A DNA stretch of 64,000 bases, taken from positions 480,001-544,000 of the forward strand of contig CAXXMD010000003.1 in NCBI GenBank assembly GCA_963675755.2, given 5' to 3'. Below the pieces are notes generated by a model, which ran no database searches, was not told the DNA's origin, and saw only the letters and a program-made list of their open reading frames with translations. Of the stretch, positions 25,621-37,160 are shown piece after piece; within the stretch, counting starts at the first letter, position 1, and every line of letters begins with the position of its first letter. The stretch is from a bacterium (GTDB lineage Bacteria > Zhuqueibacterota > Zhuqueibacteria > Residuimicrobiales > Krinioviventaceae). The position numbers were made by a program, and so were the translations under genes.

Positions 25621-26457
25621 TCAATTAGGCAATGGTGGTAAAAGCCGCGAACGCTTTACATAGTATCTCACCAGGAGTAACACCCATATCAAGCATACAA
25701 CAATCGTAATTAGCGAAGCCTCAGGACCAAAATCCCCTCCGGTCAACCAGGCAGGCCCAACAAGATTACTTTTTATAAAGGGTGTTAGTTTATCATTACC
25801 TGAAATCGCAACGCCATAAAAATTCTGACTAAAATTCCAGAACAGATGAAAAGAAATTGGCAGCCACAGTCTGCCCGTGGTAGAATACATTAATCCAAAT
25901 ATTAAACTCCCAAGCGCAGCAGAAAGCAACCCTGGTAATGATGTGTTTGCATTAAAAATATGAGCAGCCATAAACAATATACTGGTAATCCCTAATGCCC
26001 ACCAAATCCCCAGTTCAGTTTCAAGAATCCGATAAAGTATCCCTCTGAACAGTAATTCCTCAATCACACTCAACAGCATAAAGAAAACCAGAGATGTCCC
26101 CAGAACGGATATTGAATAAAAATCCTGAATTGAATACGCACCCAAACCCCACAGTAATCCTATAATCAAGGATATGCTGCCAAATCCAATCAAACCTCCC
26201 GTTATAAACGCTTTGGAAAAAAATGACAAATCCAACTCGTCAACATTTCGTTTTTCGGTTTTACGAACAAAATAATAATAGGCCCCCAACAATGTTATGG
26301 TCGTAAATACAGCTTTGATTGTTTTTTCAGTTATCCCCTCGAATCCCAAAACATGCTGGAGTATATAACCTACGAAAAACTTAATCAACAAGGCAGCCCC
26401 TAAAATCCAGATACATCCCCCTACAATGCGCAACAATATGAAACCTGCTTTTTTCAT
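25621..26457 (-). CDS. CPBP (CAAX/Abi) family intramembrane metalloprotease
   Basis: EELLFRG, F...H, H..WN motifs; LTGGDFGPEASL. Confidence 0.9.
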   Translation of the reverse strand: MKKAGFILLRIVGGCIWILGAALLIKFFVGYILQHVLGFEGITEKTIKAVFTTITLLGAYYYFVRKTEKRNVDELDLSFFSKAFITGGLIGFGSISLIIGLLWGLGAYSIQDFYSISVLGTSLVFFMLLSVIEELLFRGILYRILETELGIWWALGITSILFMAAHIFNANTSLPGLLSAALGSLIFGLMYSTTGRLWLPISFHLFWNFSQNFYGVAISGNDKLTPFIKSNLVGPAWLTGGDFGPEASLITIVVCLIWVLLLVRYYVKRSRLLPPLPN

Positions 26458-26694
26458 AACATCTCCTATAATTGTGTGTACGCATTAAATCTAAATATCA
26501 AAATAACTACCAACAATAGGCCTATTGTCTCATTTTCACCTATTCTCTTCAATATGCGCAGGATTGCCTTAATTCACAATTTTTAGTTGATATTCTACAG
26601 GCAAAAGATTAACTTTATCTGCAAAACGGCCCAATTTCATTATATATCTTTTATAAATGATTAAACCTAATCTATTGATTTTATTAACGCACTC

Positions 26695-28032
26695 TTGGAG
26701 GGCGACTTTATAAAAAAAAATATTACAGAAAAAATTTCATTTTTCATGTTCATCATCTCTCTTTTGTGTATGGCTTATGGTTATGGATACCTGACTCACG
26801 AATTAAAATTATTCCCGTATTATCAGATAAAGAATGCAAACAGATTCAGAGTTGAATTTATAGCCAAGCTCAAAGGACAAAAACAGTGGTTTTATCAACC
26901 CACAAAATATAACCAAAATGTCCCTGTTTATGAGCATATTGCCGCATACAATGCACCTACCATGTTTTCCTGCATAGGTAAAGATAAACATTTATATATA
27001 AAAATTGTCAATATGGATGGGAGCCTTGTGCACCAATGGAAAACCGACTGGTTTGATCTCTGGCCCAAAGATGCTAAAATACATAAACGTTTTGTCCCCA
27101 AAAAACGACCCGGTACAAACATTCACGGTTTAGAGATTATGGACAATGGCGATATAATTTTTATATTTGAAGATATTGGTATGGTATGTCTGGATGTATG
27201 TGGAAATTTAAAATGGCATATCAACTACTCGTTCCACCATTCCCTGCATCGTGATGATGAAGGTAATTTTTGGGTTAGTGGAAACATCTGGCATGAATCC
27301 GGTATCAAAAACTATTCATATTTAAATCCCGTTGTATTAGAACCAACTGTGGTCAAGGTGTCTCCGAATGGCAAGATCCTCTCAGAAACTTCAGTGTTTG
27401 ACATTCTACGCCATAACGAGCTTGAATCTTTTTTGATCATGCAAACCAAAGCCAATATTACTCCGCAAAACTCGGGGGATATACTGCACCTGAACGATGT
27501 TGAACCCTTTCCTACATCTATGGAACCCGGATTTTTTGGCCCCGACGATGTAATGATCTCGATACGAAACATGAACACCGTGCTGGTCTATAACCAGGAA
27601 ACACTGGAAGTTAAATATCAACGTACGGGCAAGTTCATTAGACAACATGATCCGGACTTTATTGACGGCAACACAATATCCTTGTATGACAATAACAATT
27701 TGGATATAAAAAATGACTCGGTACAAAGCAGAATCGTCATGTTCCATCTGCCGGAAGACCGGGCACAGGTTATCTATAGCGGCAGCAAAGAGGAACCTTT
27801 TTTCTCTAAAATCATGGGCAAGCATCAATGGCTTCCAAATGAAAATCTGCTAATTACAGATTCGCTATCCGGGCGTGTATTTGAAATCGACAAATCGGGT
27901 AAAATTGTCTGGGAATATTTTAATATTGTAGAAAAAGGGTATACAGGTATTATAGGCGAAGCAAAACGTATTTCTCCGGATTTTAATAAAGCGTTTTTTG
28001 AAAAAAGAAAAAGTGACTGCGCAGACAACTAA
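26695..28032 (+). CDS. Arylsulfotransferase (ASST) family protein, N-terminally membrane anchored
   Basis: HHSL, DILHLNDVE, SIRN.N, RQHDPD, YDNN, MGKHQWLPNENLLIT...GRVFEI...VWEY beta-propeller motifs. Start uncertain (26695 TTG, 26710 ATA or 26746 ATG). Confidence 0.82.
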   Translation: MEGDFIKKNITEKISFFMFIISLLCMAYGYGYLTHELKLFPYYQIKNANRFRVEFIAKLKGQKQWFYQPTKYNQNVPVYEHIAAYNAPTMFSCIGKDKHLYIKIVNMDGSLVHQWKTDWFDLWPKDAKIHKRFVPKKRPGTNIHGLEIMDNGDIIFIFEDIGMVCLDVCGNLKWHINYSFHHSLHRDDEGNFWVSGNIWHESGIKNYSYLNPVVLEPTVVKVSPNGKILSETSVFDILRHNELESFLIMQTKANITPQNSGDILHLNDVEPFPTSMEPGFFGPDDVMISIRNMNTVLVYNQETLEVKYQRTGKFIRQHDPDFIDGNTISLYDNNNLDIKNDSVQSRIVMFHLPEDRAQVIYSGSKEEPFFSKIMGKHQWLPNENLLITDSLSGRVFEIDKSGKIVWEYFNIVEKGYTGIIGEAKRISPDFNKAFFEKRKSDCADN

Positions 28033-28047
28033 CAACAAGGATCGGTC

Positions 28048-29364
28048 TTGAAAAATTTTAAAGAAAACCTCCCCAAATACATGTTCATGTTCTCAATTGT
28101 CTTTATGGCTTTTATTTATGGCTATATATGCAAAGAATTAAACCTGTTTCCATCAAAGCAGATACAAAGTGCAAATGCCTTTCGAGTATCATTAATGCAG
28201 CAATTTGCCGGAGAAAAACAATGGTATTACCAACCCACTGAGGAGAAACTAAACGTACCCATTTACAATAAAGACATGGCGTTTAATGGTTCTACCATAT
28301 TTTCCTGTGTTGGCGAAGACAATTATTTATTTGTAAAAATTGTTGATATGGACGGCAGCCTGATCCACCAATGGAAAATCGACTGGTTCGAGATTTGGCC
28401 GGATTGTGAGCATGTGCCCGAATCAGATAAACCAAAATCAAGACCCGGCACTCAAATCCAGGGAATCACATTATTAGACAATGGAGATCTGGTATTCAAC
28501 TTTTCCGGATTGGGGCTGGTACGCATGGATCCATGCGGTAAAGTTGTGTGGCGTCTTGCACATCGCACCCACCATTCAATCCATCAGGATGAGCAGGGAA
28601 ACCTGTGGGTTCCCAGAGATATTTTCCATCAATCCAAAGTTGCGGATTATCCATTCCTAAAACCAATATTTTTAGAGCCAACCATCCTGAAAATATCGCC
28701 AGAGGGTAAAGTACTCAAAGAAATTTCCATGTTAGACGTACTGGTAAGGAACAATTACAACAGTTTGTTAGTTATGTCTACCAAAGCCCGTACCGATGTA
28801 AGAACATCCGGCGATATATTACACCTGAACGATGTGGAAACATTTCCGGATTCTTTGAAAGAAGGCTTTTTCACTAAAGGAGACATTCTGGTCTCTCTGC
28901 GCAACATAAATACGGTCCTAGTATTCAATGAAGCAGACCTGAAAATAAAGTATATTAAAATCGGTGATCTAGTTAGACAGCATGATGCGGATTTTATTGA
29001 TGGCAATACGATCTCGGTTTATGATAACAACAATATTGCTCAAAAAGATAAATTCATGTACAGCAATATTACAATACTCGATGCGGTAACCAACCAAACC
29101 CGTATCTATTACAAAGGCACACCGGAAGCACCTTTTTTCTCCAACTTGATGGGCCGTCATCAATGGTTACCCAATGGCAACATGTTAATCACAGAATCTT
29201 CAACTGGTCGAGCTTTTGAGATTAATGATACTGGCAAAATCGTATGGGAATATATTAATATTGTTGAAAAAGGATATGTGGGCATTATGGAAGAAGCCAT
29301 ACGCATCTCCCCTGTTTTTAATCGGGACTTTTTTAAAAAGAAAATTGCTGAATGTGCTGATTAA
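28048..29364 (+). CDS. Arylsulfotransferase (ASST) family protein, tandem paralog
   Basis: Same motifs (THHSI, DILHLNDVE, RQHDAD, MGRHQWLPNGN); colinear with the upstream copy. Confidence 0.82.
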   Translation: MKNFKENLPKYMFMFSIVFMAFIYGYICKELNLFPSKQIQSANAFRVSLMQQFAGEKQWYYQPTEEKLNVPIYNKDMAFNGSTIFSCVGEDNYLFVKIVDMDGSLIHQWKIDWFEIWPDCEHVPESDKPKSRPGTQIQGITLLDNGDLVFNFSGLGLVRMDPCGKVVWRLAHRTHHSIHQDEQGNLWVPRDIFHQSKVADYPFLKPIFLEPTILKISPEGKVLKEISMLDVLVRNNYNSLLVMSTKARTDVRTSGDILHLNDVETFPDSLKEGFFTKGDILVSLRNINTVLVFNEADLKIKYIKIGDLVRQHDADFIDGNTISVYDNNNIAQKDKFMYSNITILDAVTNQTRIYYKGTPEAPFFSNLMGRHQWLPNGNMLITESSTGRAFEINDTGKIVWEYINIVEKGYVGIMEEAIRISPVFNRDFFKKKIAECAD

Positions 29365-29488
29365 TGAATTGTCCAAAATGATTCCAGAATAATCATCACA
29401 GGAATGCAAACAATCAAAAAAATATGAAATAAATAATAAATTTTGTATATTTAATGTTATTACAATTGATATGTTTAGGAGTTACATC

Positions 29489-29725
29489 ATGAAAAATACA
29501 TCGAAAATATTATTGGTTTTCTCAGCCATTTTACTATTCCTGGGCCCCCAAAATGCTGCAGCATATATAGGCCCCGGAACCGGCTTGTCTGCAATTGGTG
29601 CGTTTCTTGCCTTTATTTTTGGAATCATAGTAGCCATTTTGGGGTTCTTGTGGTATCCCTTTAAAAGAATTTTCGGCAAAAAGAAATCTCAGGAACCAGA
29701 TGAAATTAAAGGTGAAAACGAATAA
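29489..29725 (+). CDS. Small exported single-TM protein with AYIGPG motif
   Basis: ATG 29489 after AGGAG; signal peptide ending NAAA, then YIGPGTG, a TM helix, WYP and a basic stop-transfer KRIFGKKK. Confidence 0.75.
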   Translation: MKNTSKILLVFSAILLFLGPQNAAAYIGPGTGLSAIGAFLAFIFGIIVAILGFLWYPFKRIFGKKKSQEPDEIKGENE

Positions 29726-30105
29726 TGACTATTGTAGGCGCTATCATTCTGGTTGTTGGATTTATTGCCATCATAAATATATTTGATCTTGTAGGAAAAA
29801 GCAAAAAAGTAATAGATGTGGCAAAGCTCTCTGCACATGTATTTCAAAATCCGGATATGAGTGATCTGGAAAAAGAAAAAGCCATGCAAAAGAATTCTCT
29901 CATTTTATTCAAATATTTTTTTATCATAGTGGCAATCTGTGCAATAGCCATTTTTGCTCCCCTGGGTATTATTTGGCTGATCCAATTGACGGGTGTAACA
30001 ACCGTTGAAAATGTACTCCACGAAACATTTTCATGGCAATTCATTGTAATCAGTTCTATCTTAATCATCGGCATAACCTGGTTGTTACGGAGAAAAAATG
30101 TCTGA
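29725..30105 (+). CDS. Small membrane protein (3 TM)
   Basis: Overlaps neighbours on both sides (translational coupling); hydrophobic helices around SDLEKEKAMQ. Confidence 0.75.
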   Translation: MTIVGAIILVVGFIAIINIFDLVGKSKKVIDVAKLSAHVFQNPDMSDLEKEKAMQKNSLILFKYFFIIVAICAIAIFAPLGIIWLIQLTGVTTVENVLHETFSWQFIVISSILIIGITWLLRRKNV

Positions 30106-31177
30106 TTTTGAAAACAAGTACTCCTTTATAGAAAAAATGCTTCACGATGTAGCCTTTAAAACCTTTCCCTCCCAAATTGCAATGTCTGACCTTGAAAGCA
30201 GATTAAACAAAAAAAAACTACAAGACATCCGGATTGAGCAGCCAACCTTTATTACCGCACTGCCCCGCGCCGGTACAACCTTGTTGCTTGAGCTTGCTGT
30301 AGAAACCCGCGAGTTTGTTTCACATACCTATCGGGATATGCCATTTTTATTAACCCCCATGTTCTGGAACAGTTTTTCAAAAATTTTTAAACAATCAGAT
30401 ACTCCCCGCGAACGTGCTCATGGCGATGGCATGCTGGTTAGTGTTGACAGTCCCGAAGCCTTTGAAGAAATCATCTGGAAAGCTTTTTGGCCGTCCCGTT
30501 ACAGAAAAGATAAAATTGTACCCTGGGCAGAACCAAGCTATCCGGAATTTGAAGCATTCCTTCGCGATCATATTGTCAAGCTCATTGCCTTGCGTGGTGA
30601 AGGTGATAAAGACAGACGTTACATATCTAAAAACAATCTCAACATTTCACGGTTAAAATATATTAGCAAAATTTTCCTCGATGCAATCATCATTGTTCCT
30701 TTTCGAGATCCCATACAGCACGCGTCTTCACTGTTACGCCAGCATCTTAATTTTATCAACATTCATAAAGAAGATGCTTTTGCAAAAAAATATATGGCTG
30801 CAATAGGGCATTTTGATTTTGGCGAAAACCTGAAACCCGTTGATTTTGATAACTGGCTCGACTCGTCCGCTATCAAGGATCCGCAAAAAATCGATTTCTG
30901 GCTGCAATACTGGTCCGATTCTTATAACTATATGATGAATAATAGTAATAATAATATTCAATTTATAGCATACGATGCCATGTGCGAAAATCCATCCAAA
31001 CACATGAAAACCTTTGCGGAAATGCTAAAGCTGAAAAATCCGGACGTCCTTTTACAACAAGCTGAAAGGATTGCACCACCCAAACCTTATCAGGTAGAGT
31101 TGGAATCTATTGATGCTACAATTCTGGACAAAATAAATTCTACCCATTCTCGCTTGAAAGAAATTTCCAAATTTTAA
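30098..31177 (+). CDS. PAPS-dependent sulfotransferase family protein
   Basis: 5'-PSB loop FITALPRAGTTLL, KN motif, 3'-PB motif FRDPIQHASSL; no signal peptide. Confidence 0.87.
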   Translation: MSDFENKYSFIEKMLHDVAFKTFPSQIAMSDLESRLNKKKLQDIRIEQPTFITALPRAGTTLLLELAVETREFVSHTYRDMPFLLTPMFWNSFSKIFKQSDTPRERAHGDGMLVSVDSPEAFEEIIWKAFWPSRYRKDKIVPWAEPSYPEFEAFLRDHIVKLIALRGEGDKDRRYISKNNLNISRLKYISKIFLDAIIIVPFRDPIQHASSLLRQHLNFINIHKEDAFAKKYMAAIGHFDFGENLKPVDFDNWLDSSAIKDPQKIDFWLQYWSDSYNYMMNNSNNNIQFIAYDAMCENPSKHMKTFAEMLKLKNPDVLLQQAERIAPPKPYQVELESIDATILDKINSTHSRLKEISKF

Positions 31178-31336
31178 CAATCCGTTCTTCTTGATACTCT
31201 CCTTACATTCCTGTTAATACATCTCCCCCTGTATTGATCAAGGCTTACTTTTTTTATCACAAAATCAAACTATTTATTGCGTATTGCGTATAAAACCTTA
31301 CATTTAATTAGACAGTAATGAAAAAAGGGGATTCAC

Positions 31337-31717
31337 ATGGAATTACTGAACTATTACACAGGATGGGCCAGTATTATACTGGGCTTTGTAGCAGGGGCGG
31401 TGATTGGTTTGTTTTTTTACAAAGACGATTGGGCTGGCGGCTATAATTCCTGGCAAAGAAGAATGATGCGGTTGGGACACATCTCTTTTTTCGGACTCGG
31501 TTTTATAAACCTGGTTTTTGCACTAAGCATCAACAATTTTCAAATCCATTTAACTACAGATCTGCCGTTTTACTTGCTGGCCGCGGGTAATATTTTAATG
31601 CCAACAGTTTGCTTTTTATCCGCGTACAGGAAAAATTTCAGACAACTCTTTCCGCTGCCTGTTGCTTGTATGTTAATTGGTACCTTAATCTTTATTTTGA
31701 ACGGGGGCTTATTATGA
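31337..31717 (+). CDS. Small 4-TM membrane protein
   Basis: GGYNSWQRRMMRLGHISFFGLG; ATGA overlap with the downstream gene. Confidence 0.75.
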   Translation: MELLNYYTGWASIILGFVAGAVIGLFFYKDDWAGGYNSWQRRMMRLGHISFFGLGFINLVFALSINNFQIHLTTDLPFYLLAAGNILMPTVCFLSAYRKNFRQLFPLPVACMLIGTLIFILNGGLL

Positions 31718-33073: not shown

Positions 33074-33457
33074 GTGAAAAAGATCAGGTTAATATCTCTT
33101 TTGTTCTATGCAAGCGCAGTATATGACGGGCTGCTTGGAATCATTTTTCTATTTTTCCCGCTGTCATTATACAAGGTTTACTCGGTTACCTTTCCAAATC
33201 ATAATGGATATGTACAATTTCCGGCACTATTGTTGATTATATTTGGAATCATGTTCATGAATATTGCCAGAAAACCTGTACAAAACCGGAATTTAATGCC
33301 CTATGGTATATTATTAAAAGCCGCCTATTGTGGTGTTGTCTTTGTATATTGGTTTACGATCAATATTCCAAACATGTGGAAACCATTTGCAATCATTGAC
33401 CTGATTTTTGGTATTCTGTTTTATCTGTCTTATCGCTCACTGCAAAGCACCAACTAA
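33074..33457 (+). CDS. Small 4-TM membrane protein
   Basis: GTG start after AAGGAG; four hydrophobic segments; YD...G, P..NR, IDL motifs. Confidence 0.7.
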   Translation: MKKIRLISLLFYASAVYDGLLGIIFLFFPLSLYKVYSVTFPNHNGYVQFPALLLIIFGIMFMNIARKPVQNRNLMPYGILLKAAYCGVVFVYWFTINIPNMWKPFAIIDLIFGILFYLSYRSLQSTN

Positions 33458-33597: not shown

Positions 33598-35817
33598 ATG
33601 ATTAATTATGACAAAATATTTCAGACATTCATTGACAAAATGAATGATGGTATCATTCAAGTCGATAAAGATCTGAAAATTGTCTATTGTAATCCCAAAG
33701 TTTGTGAACTTTTGGGACACTCTTTTGAACGTCTGCATCATAATTCTTTGCTTGACTTTCTAAGTCCCCAAAACCAAAAAATTGTTGCAAAACAATTTAA
33801 AATGCGGGAACAGGGTTCTAATCAATCCTATGAACTGGAATTCCACAAAAATGATCAAATCATTACAGCCATTCTGGTTCCCCACACAATATATGATGAA
33901 AACGATAATTTTATTGGAAGTGTAACCGTTCTTAATGATATTTCAGAACGCAAAAAAATCGAACAAGCACTTATATCCAACGAAGAAAAATATAAAGCCA
34001 TATTTAATAATAATTTTCAATTTACCGGATTATTGGATCCCCAAGGTTTATTGTTAGACGCCAATCAAATAGCATTGGATTTTATTGGTAAAGAAAAAAA
34101 AGATGTTATCAATCAATATTTTTGGGACACTCCCTGGTGGGCTCATGATAAATTTATTCAGCAAGACCTGAGAAACGCAATTCAACATGCCTTAACCGGT
34201 GAAATAGTACATTTCGAAACCTATCATATCAATGCAAAAGGTGAAAAACGATACTTTGATGTTACACTTAAACCGGTCATAGATTCTAATAATGAGATCA
34301 TTTATATCGTTCCGGAAAGTCATGATTTTACTGACAGGCGCAATATAACAAAATCGCTTTATGAGAACAAGAAACGTTACCAGCTATTGTTTGAAATGGC
34401 AAGTGTGGGAATCATTATTCTCAGAGAAGGAAGCTTTTTTGATTGTAATAAAAAAACCATGGAACTGTTTGAAACAGATTCCAGCAGATATTTTATAGAT
34501 AAAAGTCCCGAAGAATTATCACCAGAGAAACAAAAAGATGGTATTCTGTCAAGTACTAAAGCTCAGGAATATCTAAAAGCAGCACTTGAGGGTACCCCAC
34601 AGGATTTTGAATGGACCTTTCTAAAAGCATCCGGTAAAGAGTTTATTGCAAGAGTAAGGCTTGATCTTATTGTAATCAATGAAACACGCTTTATTCAGGG
34701 ATTCGTTACAGATATTACTGAAATTAAAAAAGCAGAGCAAGCTCTGCTTGAAAGTGAAGAAAAATATCGTACACTGGTTGAACTTGCAAATGACGGCGTT
34801 GTTATTGTACAGGATGGTTTGTTAAAATTTATCAATTCCAGATTTTTAAAAATGCTTGGCTATTCTTTTCAACGAGCCATCAATCATCCGCTTGAACAAT
34901 TTATTTACCCTGATGATCGCGCTCATGTTCTTGAATATTATAAAAAAAGAATGAAGGGCGAAATTTCTACAAATATGTACAACTTTAGAATCATTACCAA
35001 AGATAACCGGGTAATTACAATTGAAGCAAACATAATGAGAATCATTTACCAGGGTAAACCTGCAAGTTTTGGGTTTATACGAGATGTTACTGAACGACTA
35101 AAACTACAGGAAAAACTTGCTTTTTCAGAAAAAATGTCTACCATTGGTGAGCTTTCAAGAAAAGTTGCTCACGAAATTGGCAACCCGCTTTCATCCATTT
35201 TACATTCAGCAAGTGAATTAAATGATACAGCAATGCTTGCCGGTGATGAAAAAATATTAATGGATATCATCCTTAAAGAAACCAAACGTTTAGATGAAAT
35301 CATCAAAAACTTTTTAAAATTCAGCAGACCCAGACAACCTGAATTTAAAACAATCAACCTTGCAACAATTGTTAACGAATTGTATCTGGTATTTCAAAAT
35401 GATCAAACCTTTAAAGAAAAAAATATTGTATTAGAAAAAACAATAGAACAAGACCTGCCAGAAATAACAGCAGATCCCAATATGATCAAAGAAGTACTCT
35501 GGAACATATTTTTAAACGCCAGGGATGCTTTAGACTCAAATGGATGTATTTGCCTTTCTCTTTTTTCTCTATCGCATGAAAATGTTAAATCTGTCCAGAT
35601 GATAATAAGAGATAATGGAAAAGGTATTCCTAAAGAAAATATAAACATAATATTTGAGCCATATTTTACTTCAAAATTTACCGGTTCCGGGCTGGGGCTG
35701 GCAACAGTCAAGAAAAATATTTCCGAACATGATGGAAGCATTTCAGTAAAATCCACAATAGATAAAGGTACCGAATTCAACATCATTCTACCCGTTGAGA
35801 GGAGCATTGAAAAGTGA
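33598..35817 (+). CDS. Cytoplasmic multi-PAS sensor histidine kinase
   Basis: Four PAS/PAC repeats; H-box VAHEIGNPL, N-box NIFLNARDA, G1 DNGKGI, F-box IFEPYFTSK, G2 GSGLGL. Confidence 0.93.
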   Translation: MINYDKIFQTFIDKMNDGIIQVDKDLKIVYCNPKVCELLGHSFERLHHNSLLDFLSPQNQKIVAKQFKMREQGSNQSYELEFHKNDQIITAILVPHTIYDENDNFIGSVTVLNDISERKKIEQALISNEEKYKAIFNNNFQFTGLLDPQGLLLDANQIALDFIGKEKKDVINQYFWDTPWWAHDKFIQQDLRNAIQHALTGEIVHFETYHINAKGEKRYFDVTLKPVIDSNNEIIYIVPESHDFTDRRNITKSLYENKKRYQLLFEMASVGIIILREGSFFDCNKKTMELFETDSSRYFIDKSPEELSPEKQKDGILSSTKAQEYLKAALEGTPQDFEWTFLKASGKEFIARVRLDLIVINETRFIQGFVTDITEIKKAEQALLESEEKYRTLVELANDGVVIVQDGLLKFINSRFLKMLGYSFQRAINHPLEQFIYPDDRAHVLEYYKKRMKGEISTNMYNFRIITKDNRVITIEANIMRIIYQGKPASFGFIRDVTERLKLQEKLAFSEKMSTIGELSRKVAHEIGNPLSSILHSASELNDTAMLAGDEKILMDIILKETKRLDEIIKNFLKFSRPRQPEFKTINLATIVNELYLVFQNDQTFKEKNIVLEKTIEQDLPEITADPNMIKEVLWNIFLNARDALDSNGCICLSLFSLSHENVKSVQMIIRDNGKGIPKENINIIFEPYFTSKFTGSGLGLATVKKNISEHDGSISVKSTIDKGTEFNIILPVERSIEK

Positions 35818-37160
35818 AAAGCATCCTAATAATAGATGATAATGACAGCTTTAGAAAAGTATTATCAATGCGCCTGGGAAAACGGGGATTCAGGGTCAAA
35901 GATGTTGCAGAAAGCATTAAAGGTTTGGAACTGATTACAAATGAATTTTTCGACATTATTATCACAGACCTTGTTATGAAGGACAAAGACGGTATTCAGG
36001 TCATTCAGGAAGCACGTGTATCAAGTCCTGCATCTATAATCATTCTTATAACCGCATATGGTTCAGTTGACACAGCCGTTCAGGCTATCAAAGCTGGTGC
36101 ATATGATTATATTACCAAAGAATCAAACCTTGATGAAATTCTATTGGTCATTGACAGAGCCATGGAAAAAAAATCATTGATGGATAAAATCCAGGTCCTC
36201 GAAAATCAAATTCGTGAACAATTTGATTTTGACGAGATCATTGGCAGCTCTCCCAAAATGATAGAAGTATTGAAAACTATATCAAAGGTAAGTACTACCC
36301 AGGCAACCGTACTCATTACCGGCCAGTCAGGTACGGGTAAGGAGTTGGTTGGCAAAGCAATTCATTATAACAGCCCTCGTAAAAACAAATCTCTGGTAAC
36401 AATTAATTGCGGGGCAATCCCGGAGAACCTTCAGGAAAGTGAATTGTTTGGCTATAAAAAAGGGGCCTTTACCGGAGCTATTCAGGATAAAAAGGGATTA
36501 ATTGAAGAAGCAGATGGTGGTACATTAATCCTTGATGAAGTTGGCGAGCTGTCACCTACAGCCCAGGTAAAGTTGTTGCGTTTTTTACAAAACAACGAAG
36601 TACGCAGGGTCGGTGATACTAAAACAAGCATAGTAGACGTTCGCATTATTGCCATGACAAACCGCAATCTTGAAGACGAAGTCAAAAACAATACTTTTCG
36701 TGAAGACTTGTTTTTCAGACTGAATGTTGTTCCAATTATATTACCCTCCCTTTCAGAAAGACCTGGTGATATTGAAATCATGCTGGAGCATTTTGTTAAA
36801 AAAATTGGCAAAAAATTACACATGACAAAATTAAACATTACTCCTGAAGCAGTCCGTCTATTAAAGATTTATCACTGGCCGGGTAACATCCGTGAATTGG
36901 AAAATGTATTGGAACGATGTGCAATCTTGTGTAACGATGAAACCATATACCCTGATGATTTACCGTCAGACATTCAGCAAAAAAATAATAACAATGAACC
37001 CGAGTTCACGGGCACACATTTGTCATTACAAGAGATTGAAAAAAAATACATCCTTTCTGTTCTTGATAGTACAAACGGTAACAAGTCACATGCTGCAGAT
37101 ATCTTGCAAATTTCCAGACCCACTTTGATCAATAAATTAAAATCATATAACATTGATTAA
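35814..37160 (+). CDS. NtrC-family sigma-54-dependent response regulator
   Basis: Receiver (IIDD, TDLVM, TAYG), AAA+ GQSGTGKE, ESELFG..KGAFTGA, FREDLFFRLNV, WPGNIRELEN, Fis-type HTH. Confidence 0.95.
   Translation: MKSILIIDDNDSFRKVLSMRLGKRGFRVKDVAESIKGLELITNEFFDIIITDLVMKDKDGIQVIQEARVSSPASIIILITAYGSVDTAVQAIKAGAYDYITKESNLDEILLVIDRAMEKKSLMDKIQVLENQIREQFDFDEIIGSSPKMIEVLKTISKVSTTQATVLITGQSGTGKELVGKAIHYNSPRKNKSLVTINCGAIPENLQESELFGYKKGAFTGAIQDKKGLIEEADGGTLILDEVGELSPTAQVKLLRFLQNNEVRRVGDTKTSIVDVRIIAMTNRNLEDEVKNNTFREDLFFRLNVVPIILPSLSERPGDIEIMLEHFVKKIGKKLHMTKLNITPEAVRLLKIYHWPGNIRELENVLERCAILCNDETIYPDDLPSDIQQKNNNNEPEFTGTHLSLQEIEKKYILSVLDSTNGNKSHAADILQISRPTLINKLKSYNID

Follow-up and report, generated by a model that had tools for sequence, protein, structure and literature searches.

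The microprotein DltX serves as a tyrosine "acyl shuttle" in the D-alanylation of teichoic acids, and the same motif occurs fused to MBOATs such as PatA, according to the accessible part of PMC12148441. A two-enzyme sulfation route operates in caprazamycin biosynthesis, where Cpz8, an enzyme that depends on 3′-phosphoadenosine-5′-phosphosulfate (PAPS), sulfates triketide pyrones made by the type III polyketide synthase (PKS) Cpz6, and the sulfated pyrones act as donors for Cpz4 (PMC4257720, in the portion available to us, citing Tang et al. 2013). Among arylsulfate sulfotransferases (ASSTs), the enzyme type to which Cpz4 belongs, E. coli AssT is transiently sulfated on His436, which is flanked by His252, His356, Asn358 and Arg374; the accessible sections of PMC13426309, which describe this, also report that ASSTs accept tyrosine-containing peptides and state that their natural donors and physiological roles are unknown. 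Here, we analyze a 64,000-nucleotide stretch of DNA (the window; contig CAXXMD010000003.1, positions 480,001 to 544,000, forward strand) from a bacterium of the Krinioviventaceae, and in it a small open reading frame (ORF) at 29489..29725 that encodes a tyrosine-capped membrane protein, hereafter the AY-cap peptide, as part of a cassette combining a PAPS-type sulfotransferase with ASST-like enzymes.

In the reading that we favor, to which we assign a rough probability of 0.45, the AY-cap peptide is a processed membrane adaptor of the sulfotransferase, with its N-terminus outside and its C-terminus inside, and through its cap it would meet, on the periplasmic side, the outer enzyme of a two-step sulfation module. 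The features on which the analysis turns are listed below, in window coordinates and all on the + strand.

26695..28032, +: ASST-like paralogue, copy 1 (Pfam PF14269, E 1.3e-35).
28048..29364, +: ASST-like beta-propeller protein, copy 2, with an N-terminal membrane anchor (Pfam PF14269, Arylsulfotran_2, E 6.5e-38).
29477..29481, +: Shine-Dalgarno sequence AGGAG, 7 nt 5′ of the ATG at 29489, read from the sequence.
29489..29725, +: small AY-cap membrane protein of 78 residues (ORF reading, homologues, profile).
29489..29563, +: predicted cleavable signal peptide, residues 1–25 (n-region MKNTSK, 13-residue h-region, c-region PQNAAA).
29564..29578, +: cap Y-I-G-P-G, invariant; Tyr26 is the predicted mature residue 1 (column counts).
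29576..29653, +: predicted single transmembrane helix with a small-residue face, G12, A16, A/G20, A24 and G27 in mature numbering.
29651..29722, +: predicted cytoplasmic end, W-Y-P-x-K-R followed by a Lys/Arg-rich and acidic tail (column counts).
29725..30105, +: TM126, a 126-residue, three-helix membrane anchor of the sulfotransferase (profile match in 80 of 80 loci; its ATG overlaps the TAA of the peptide).
30098..31177, +: PAPS-type sulfotransferase (Sulfotransfer_3), with no membrane segment of its own (Pfam PF13469, E 5e-10).

Read directly from the sequence, the peptide ORF extends from the ATG at 29489 to the TAA at 29723–29725, and this start is preferred over an in-frame ATG upstream, at 29471, because of the AGGAG. 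The product opens with MKNTSK, a 13-residue hydrophobic stretch and PQNAAA, continues as YIGPGTGLSAIGAFLA...GFLWYPFKR and ends in a KKK-rich tail; the residues that follow PQNAAA read YIGPGTGLSAIGAFLAFIFGIIVAILGFLWYPFKR, and the tail after them is first Lys-rich and then acidic. An earlier note on this DNA had described the same architecture (a signal peptide ending in AAA, YIGPG, one helix and a basic tail), and the ORF reading bears it out at exact coordinates. As far as can be judged from sequence, the leader has an n-, an h- and a c-region, and both −3 and −1 are small residues, as in a textbook site for signal peptidase I; behind it come a stop-transfer helix and the cytoplasmic tail. Most likely, signal peptidase I cuts after Ala-Ala-Ala to give a 53-residue mature chain that starts with Tyr-Ile-Gly-Pro-Gly, the codon of Tyr26 being 29564–29566. 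The mature chain is predicted to adopt an N-out/C-in topology, and the small-residue face of its helix would be a packing surface.

The M13 procoat protein follows a similar plan: in fewer than 80 residues it fits a cleavable signal peptide that has an AxA site, a brief N-terminal stretch that is exported, a single helix and, at the C-terminus, a basic tail. The AY-cap peptide resembles it in build only, and no homology is claimed; unlike procoat, it is a cellular gene product encoded in an enzyme operon, with an uncharged stub of approximately six residues that carries an invariant YxGPG.

No Pfam or NCBIfam family could be assigned to the peptide. The only matches were below threshold, namely DUF6223 (PF19733), at 20.0 bits where the cut-off is 27.4, and an accessory family of the PTS, at 21 bits where it is 45; a precomputed PF19733 label is present on a few homologues. 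A look-up in the ESM Atlas gave nothing beyond clusters named "hypothetical protein", at 0.89, and these can serve at best as leads. Scanning positions 26300–31500 for promoters and terminators gave fewer sites than in shuffled sequences and was uninformative.

The family is large. A word-seeded search found 88 homologues of 55–101 residues among 90 candidates, and an alignment of 45 of the 88, from which the family profile was built, left Y26, G28, P29, G30, G37, F53, W55, Y56 and P57 invariant. Run against 1.84 billion representative sequences, the profile matched 2,940 clusters when the limit was set at E<=1e-3, and 1,223 when it was set at E<=1e-10; the sequences read from this search are the best 150 of the 2,940 representatives. 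Two peptide patterns matched at 275 places across a set with one genome per species, and 261 of these matches, from many phyla by record title, were confirmed. The best 80 of the 261 are the loci to which all counts "of 80" refer. Thus, the AY-cap peptide is a real protein of a large unnamed family, far beyond what chance would give.

Within the 80 loci, the 35-residue core from Tyr to Arg is free of gaps, and Tyr1, G3, P4, G5, G27, W30 and P32 are each found in every locus, with K34 and R35 in 77 each. Mature residues 1–33 are uncharged in all 80, and residues 34–45 contain on average 5.7 Lys or Arg. The AxA|Y site on which the earlier note had based its predicted cleavage is conserved as well: Ala occupies −1 in 78 of 80 loci, −3 holds Ala in 67 and Val in 10 (77 together), and Pro stands at −6 in 54. 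The longest possible ORF leaves just 5–9 residues ahead of the Tyr in three loci, which suggests that the mature protein can do without the leader.

Invariance of the tyrosine, one of the checks that the earlier note had named for its own proposal, was followed by profile. The two peptide patterns used for the species genomes both include the Tyr; profile searches of whole genomes, in which it was not required, recovered it all the same in each of the credible matches. With position 1 left free, a core pattern fits 223 of 231 proteins, all 223 of which have Tyr there, and the eight proteins outside the pattern also carry Tyr1. The second tyrosine of the core, Tyr31 of the WYP motif, is by comparison variable (Y 198, F 24, L 1; n = 223). 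Since Phe replaces it in these 24 of 223 proteins and it is missing from the enzyme-fused forms described below, the WYP tyrosine was rejected as a sulfation site.

The window's own genome contains one strong copy of the peptide, and its weak profile matches revealed no further AY-cap module. A single long entry was present among the best 150 database proteins, the 369-residue P0114, in which the peptide module is C-terminal and follows a membrane segment of several helices; this protein is probably an artefact of read-through or of gene calling.

A neighbour tabulation, also proposed in the earlier note, found the sulfotransferase in 79 of 80 loci and an ASST-like gene in 74 (tblastn with the window neighbours), as well as TM126 in all 80 (profile), with TM126 immediately 3′ of the peptide in 77. 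The order peptide, TM126, sulfotransferase is fixed, with the peptide first in the unit. In the window, the stop codon of the peptide and the start codon of TM126 overlap (TAATG), and TM126 and the sulfotransferase overlap by 8 nt. TM126 and the sulfotransferase occupy one stop-to-stop frame in 37 loci and separate ORFs in 38, and no same-strand sulfotransferase is nearby in two. The fused relatives are ~484–499 residues long, and those examined start mostly within ~3 nt of the peptide stop. Because 38 of the 80 relatives are split in the same way, the division into anchor and enzyme seen in the window is a recurrent natural form and not a local frameshift; because TM126 shares a frame with the enzyme in 37 of 80, it is taken as the membrane anchor of the sulfotransferase. 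The peptide, being translationally coupled to this anchor, thus looks like a sulfotransferase subunit.

The ASST-like gene varies more in position, lying upstream on the same strand in 50 of the 80 loci, downstream on the same strand in 17 and on the opposite strand in 7, and it is absent from 6. Five of the genomes to which these six loci belong were searched: four encode an ASST elsewhere (E 1e-66 to 1e-135), and the fifth, a 1.8-Mb assembly, gave no ASST match. The pairing of peptide and sulfotransferase was also assessed within the phylum of the window (Zhuqueibacterota). A profile search found this type of sulfotransferase in 10 of 167 genomes, nine of which have the stand-alone peptide, adjacent on the same contig in eight and split across contig ends in one; the tenth genome is 78% complete, and its enzyme is cut by a contig end. 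The remaining peptide-profile matches read from this phylum are modules of other types. These observations give good support to an obligate partnership between the peptide and the membrane-anchored sulfotransferase.

Clustering of all flanking ORFs in the 80 loci disclosed no further conserved gene, the next clusters being present in 14, 12 and 11 of 80. There is no MBOAT among the window neighbours or the conserved neighbour clusters of the 80 loci, and neither a peptidase-type exporter nor a transporter among the conserved cassette neighbours. Likewise, no carrier-making gene (type III PKS or similar) is found among the conserved neighbours, although one polyketide-synthase-like flank occurs in the 110 flanking ORFs scanned.

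TM126 itself has no family in Pfam or NCBIfam. By sequence, it has a near-absent N-terminal tail, a Lys-rich first loop, an uncharged second loop and RRK after helix 3, and a loop residue, Glu51, is nearly invariant. The strict pairing of TM126 with the peptide, the small-residue face of the peptide helix, this Glu51 and the lack of any other conserved transporter in the cassette invite the idea that the peptide helix and the three TM126 helices form a conduit or flippase for a sulfated carrier or a lipid-linked acceptor, with four helices per unit and possibly as an oligomer. Such a conduit would solve the problem, discussed below, of bringing sulfate from one compartment to the other, without consuming the peptide. 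We nevertheless consider it distinctly improbable: Pfam and NCBIfam scans gave no likeness to transporter families, the interior of the peptide helix has no polar or charged residue, and the relatives fused to alkaline-phosphatase-superfamily (AlkP) enzymes have one such helix and no TM126.

The product of 30098..31177 is a PAPS-type sulfotransferase by its Pfam assignment and by its predicted fold. The PRAGTT loop is invariant. A profile of the fused form placed TPST1, a human protein-tyrosine sulfotransferase, closest among the solved structures (E 3.5e-7), followed by TPST2 and Stf1. The structural model (predicted local distance difference test score, pLDDT, 94) gave Stf1, Stf9 and TPST1/2 as best Foldseek matches, with E 2e-7 to 6e-6 and template-modeling (TM) scores of ~0.4-0.5. 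The likeness to TPST is only a lead; Stf1 and Stf9 match the fold equally well. Because TM126 ends in RRK after helix 3, the enzyme is predicted to be cytoplasmic, as the use of PAPS requires.

A TPST-like PAPS sulfotransferase beside a small peptide with a conserved Tyr recalls TPST and the RaxX/RaxST pair. The AY-cap peptide, however, is a membrane protein and not a secreted peptide made on the ribosome and then modified (RiPP), and the cassette has no conserved peptidase-type exporter. Known substrates of TPST and RaxST carry acidic residues near the Tyr, and the AY-cap peptide has none there.

The outer enzymes of the cassette are the two ASST-like proteins, tandem copies that are 51% identical, each with an N-terminal membrane helix of its own. 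Two ASST copies are also present in relatives L014, L038, L060, L082 and L085. The invariant residues of the ASST family include H176, H259, N261, Q311 and H312, and its Q-H pair aligns with Gln435-His436 of E. coli AssT in a comparison of the profile with the AssT chain, His436 being the residue that is transiently sulfated. Among solved structures, Cpz4 (9kf4) is closest to the ASST profile (E 3e-11). The model of copy 2 (pLDDT 94.4) has its best fold match in Cpz4 as well (9kf4/9kf6, E 1.8e-16, TM-score 0.56), with E. coli AssT next. Pfam, profile and fold matches agree with the earlier note, which had spoken of an ASST and a sulfotransferase, and show the cluster to pair a PAPS-type sulfotransferase with a Cpz4-type ASST. 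The literature found for PF14269 deals with plant, algal and fungal sulfotransferases.

The flanks of the ASST membrane anchor were used to orient the propeller. Lys and Arg are more numerous on the N-terminal than on the C-terminal side in 28 of 54 anchors, equal in 18 and fewer in 8, a moderately supportive bias according to which the propeller is probably periplasmic. Taken with the topologies predicted for the peptide and TM126, this would place the two sulfotransferases on opposite faces of the membrane, with the Tyr on the side of the ASST. The cassette resembles the caprazamycin system in encoding a PAPS-type sulfotransferase together with an ASST closest to Cpz4, the comparison with Cpz8 being made at the level of enzyme type. 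It differs from that system in that no PKS or other carrier-making gene is conserved, both enzymes are membrane-anchored and predicted to lie on opposite faces, a Tyr-capped peptide and a three-helix anchor are added, and the distribution spans many phyla instead of one antibiotic cluster.

This arrangement bears directly on the proposal of the earlier note that Tyr26 is O-sulfated and serves either as an aryl-sulfate donor for the ASST, in the manner of a DltX-like shuttle, or as the final acceptor. Several observations favor it. The caprazamycin enzyme pair needs a phenolic carrier, as far as the accessible parts of PMC4257720 and PMC13426309 go, and no gene for making one is conserved here; Tyr1 of the peptide is the only invariant phenol among the membrane parts of the cassette, and it was never Phe in any sequence read. 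The sulfotransferase is close to the human protein-tyrosine sulfotransferases (profile E 3.5e-7, Foldseek E 7e-7), and ASSTs, whose natural donors are stated to be unknown, take Tyr peptides (PMC13426309, accessible sections). Moreover, the tyrosine shuttle motif of MBOAT/SGNH systems exists both as a stand-alone protein, DltX, and fused to enzymes, according to the part of PMC12148441 that could be consulted, and the stand-alone and fused forms of the AY-cap mirror this.

The comparison with DltX can be taken further. Both are tiny single-pass membrane proteins encoded with transferases, with an invariant Tyr at the outer face (predicted in the case of the AY-cap peptide) and a place between a donor system on the inside and, on the outside, a transferase whose reaction passes through a covalent enzyme intermediate. 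They differ in that the Tyr of DltX lies in a C-terminal FxYxxF, whereas that of the peptide is the predicted first residue, in YxGPG; in that DltX systems have an MBOAT path, which is lacking here; and in the group itself, which would be sulfate and not acyl.

The compartments pose a difficulty for a sulfated Tyr26. The PAPS enzyme is predicted to be inside and Tyr26 outside, and no MBOAT-like or other conduit is conserved. A workable route may exist if the TPST-like enzyme sulfates the precursor in the cytoplasm, before a post-translational insertion, and the ASST histidine takes the sulfuryl group outside. Sulfation before export, however, would make the peptide a single-use item, which fits poorly with translational coupling and with fusion to an enzyme domain of ~640 residues. 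Relatives of the peptide partner AlkP-type enzymes and methyltransferase-like ones (the latter by sub-threshold matches), for which a sulfate carrier makes no sense. The missing acidic residues near the Tyr and the equally good fit of Stf1 and Stf9 to the sulfotransferase fold (TM-scores of ~0.4-0.5) also count against it. A sulfated Tyr26 thus appears doubtful to us, although it is better motivated than expected; what it lacks is a membrane route for the sulfate. Its specific form, in which the membrane-tethered enzyme makes sulfo-Tyr26 in the cytoplasm, the new negative charge aids the passage of the uncharged loop through the membrane, and signal peptidase leaves the sulfo-Tyr as residue 1 outside to act as the natural ASST donor for an envelope glycan, is in our estimate quite unlikely.

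The AY-cap extends beyond this cassette. The peptide profile matches 47 of the 167 genomes of the window phylum, and the weaker among these matches (E 1e-13 to 1e-7) fall mostly on the N-terminal ends of ORFs of 700–770 residues that belong to the AlkP superfamily (PF01663, annotated only as "alkaline phosphatase family protein"). A dedicated search for longer relatives of the peptide had found none, and the module was later seen in these ~700–770-residue proteins by whole-genome profiles. They share the build of the peptide and are homologous to it, at the per-genome profile E-values just given: a signal peptide and AxA are followed by YIGPGAGFAFL(T/S)SF..., (W/L)-P-x-R and a basic stretch. 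They differ in being enzyme-fused, in having Phe-Ala-Phe-Leu-Thr-Ser in place of Leu-Ser-Ala-Ile-Gly, in lacking the WYP tyrosine and in their neighbourhood. Seeding a search with residues 30–110 of one such fused protein gave 1,688 clusters. PF01663 was found in all of the best 120, and the module motif lay within the first 140 residues in 119 of these 120, with Tyr in 119 of 119 and Ala at −1 in 117 of 119.

Six AlkP-fused loci (L116–L121) were inspected. Judged by ORF size and starts, every one of them encodes a membrane protein resembling heparinase II/III as well as a further PF01663 paralogue, both confirmed by Pfam in the scanned loci L116, L119 and L120; those further paralogues whose starts are visible have a signal- or lipobox-like sequence at the N-terminus. 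Two of the loci, L116 and L120, have confirmed sulfatase-family proteins, adjacent genes for adenylyl-sulfate (APS) kinase and ATP sulfurylase occur in one of the six loci, and L117 has a confirmed DUF2061 protein, which an ORF in L121 resembles. The L116–L121 clusters also hold a methyltransferase and a 275-residue membrane protein.

Still weaker profile matches are small ORFs that read AYLDPGTGS. Used as a query, this sequence type was found at eight places in seven genomes, and it matched the window peptide too, with E 3.8e-4. At seven of the eight places, the small ORF lies directly 5′ of an ORF of ~465 residues (starting ...FRDPSGFLF) that shows class I methyltransferase signals below threshold only and belongs to no curated family. 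At the eighth place, it stands upstream of a gene for a membrane enzyme of the sulfatase family, with glycosyltransferase genes alongside. In L137 and L142–L147, the AYLDPGTGS ORF and the ~465-residue ORF have the look of a second uncharacterised pair of microprotein and enzyme. The AlkP-fused and AYLDPGTGS loci together bear out what the earlier note had stated, that AY(I/L)(D/G)PG peptides recur beside envelope-modifying enzymes. It is thus well supported that the peptide belongs to a class of Tyr-capped anchor modules that are fused to, or translationally coupled with, enzymes decorating envelope polymers.

The flanks of the cassette may also point to glycans. Of 144 flanking ORFs selected as the nearest in the 80 loci, we scanned the first 110 (L007–L067), and all flank counts, which come without a control, refer to this set. 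By our own tally, ~18 of the 110 are genes of glycan synthesis or modification: PMT_2 (four), GT2, Bac_transf, Acyl_transf_3 and sulfatase-family (two each), and single cases of Wzy_C, WbqC, GT87, STELLO, a UDP-glucose dehydrogenase and an epimerase. Five sulfate genes and four cyclic di-GMP genes were counted as well. A divergent relative of the peptide, reading LLYVGPGMGGG and accompanied by ASST and TM126, lies amid Wzx-like flippase and GT2 genes.

Tyrosine O-glycosylation and Tyr-primed glycan synthesis occur in other systems. The exposed Tyr of the AY-cap peptide might accordingly be a glycan attachment site, the peptide being an O-glycosylated primer or acceptor whose glycan is then sulfated, much like a small bacterial proteoglycan. 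PMT_2, a GT-C enzyme acting in the periplasm, on 4 of the 110 flanks and in one further locus, the nearby ligase-type gene Wzy_C and other glycan genes, and the company of the AlkP-fused relatives (membrane proteins of the sulfatase family or resembling heparinase II/III and, in one of six loci, APS kinase and ATP sulfurylase) would fit this. The conserved core, however, contains no glycan gene, and the neighbour counts are uncontrolled; we see the peptide as a glycan primer only as a very remote prospect.

We return to the adaptor reading, which the wider family also supports, in that the same module, fused to PF01663 enzymes or coupled to a methyltransferase-like ORF, suggests a general role as anchor or partner. 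The peptide would be made as a procoat-like precursor, and signal peptidase I would expose Tyr-Ile-Gly-Pro-Gly at the outer face of the membrane. Its helix would pack through the small-residue face on the three helices of TM126, so that hardly any part of the inner complex other than the Tyr-Gly-Pro-Gly cap would reach the periplasm. There, the cap could act as a contact or anion-binding cap for the outer ASST, and it need not be a covalent carrier. The cassette as a whole would carry out two-step sulfation, working from both sides of the inner membrane, and its substrate would probably be a glycan that is secreted or part of the envelope. A complex of ASST copy 2, the sulfotransferase, TM126 and peptide residues 26–78 was predicted and scored 0.09 and 0.05, where the mark was 0.32 and no controls were folded; it counts neither for nor against binding.

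Several points weigh against this adaptor. It would need no Tyr that is never Phe, and yet Tyr1 is constant while Tyr31 is Phe in 24 of 223 proteins. A cleavable signal peptide spent on a six-residue stub suggests a specific role for that stub. The contact between peptide and partners is a prediction from the genes, the orientation of the ASST one from a moderate charge bias (28/18/8 of 54), and the idea of a glycan acceptor one from uncontrolled neighbour counts. Divergent members lacking the Tyr are also possible, since the sequences read are the best 150 of 2,940 representatives.

Other genes near the cassette in the window vary between relatives. Downstream, on the + strand, a B12-binding radical S-adenosylmethionine (SAM) protein and two membrane proteins of ~126 residues without a family are encoded at 31337–31717, 31609/31714–33048 and 33074–33457. 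The radical SAM protein was rejected as a core part, having a tblastn match in only 3 of 80 loci (L007, L014 and L041); a B12-binding radical SAM gene also flanks the cassette in L033. The two membrane proteins, TM126b and TM127, were rejected together with a CPBP protease, each occurring in 1 of 80 loci, the near-identical relative L007. This CPBP/Rce1-like intramembrane protease is encoded at 25621–26457, on the − strand, just upstream of the cassette. Further downstream, at 33598–35817 and 35814–37160 (+), two genes have the look, by sequence, of a histidine kinase and an AAA+-type response regulator, with tblastn matches in 3 of 80 loci each.

The enzyme pair of the cassette is of a known kind, that of two-step sulfation, and the novelty is one of variation: the pair is predicted to be divided between the two sides of the membrane, and a peptide and an anchor accompany it. 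We found no mention of the AY-cap motif or of the cassette in the literature searched, which excludes most subscription journals. The cassette is widespread and self-contained, and it links a PAPS-type enzyme predicted to be inside to a Cpz4-type ASST predicted to be outside, with two small membrane parts and no further conserved gene. It offers a testable system for the use of activated sulfate beyond the cytoplasm, and several cultured, non-pathogenic marine strains are among the titled loci that carry it. A sulfo-Tyr carrier, if true, would give the DltX acyl shuttle its first counterpart for sulfate, and it would explain where periplasmic ASSTs obtain activated sulfate. More broadly, the AY-cap marks thousands of envelope-decorating enzymes, fused to it or coupled with it, and establishing the role of its Tyr would annotate all of them.

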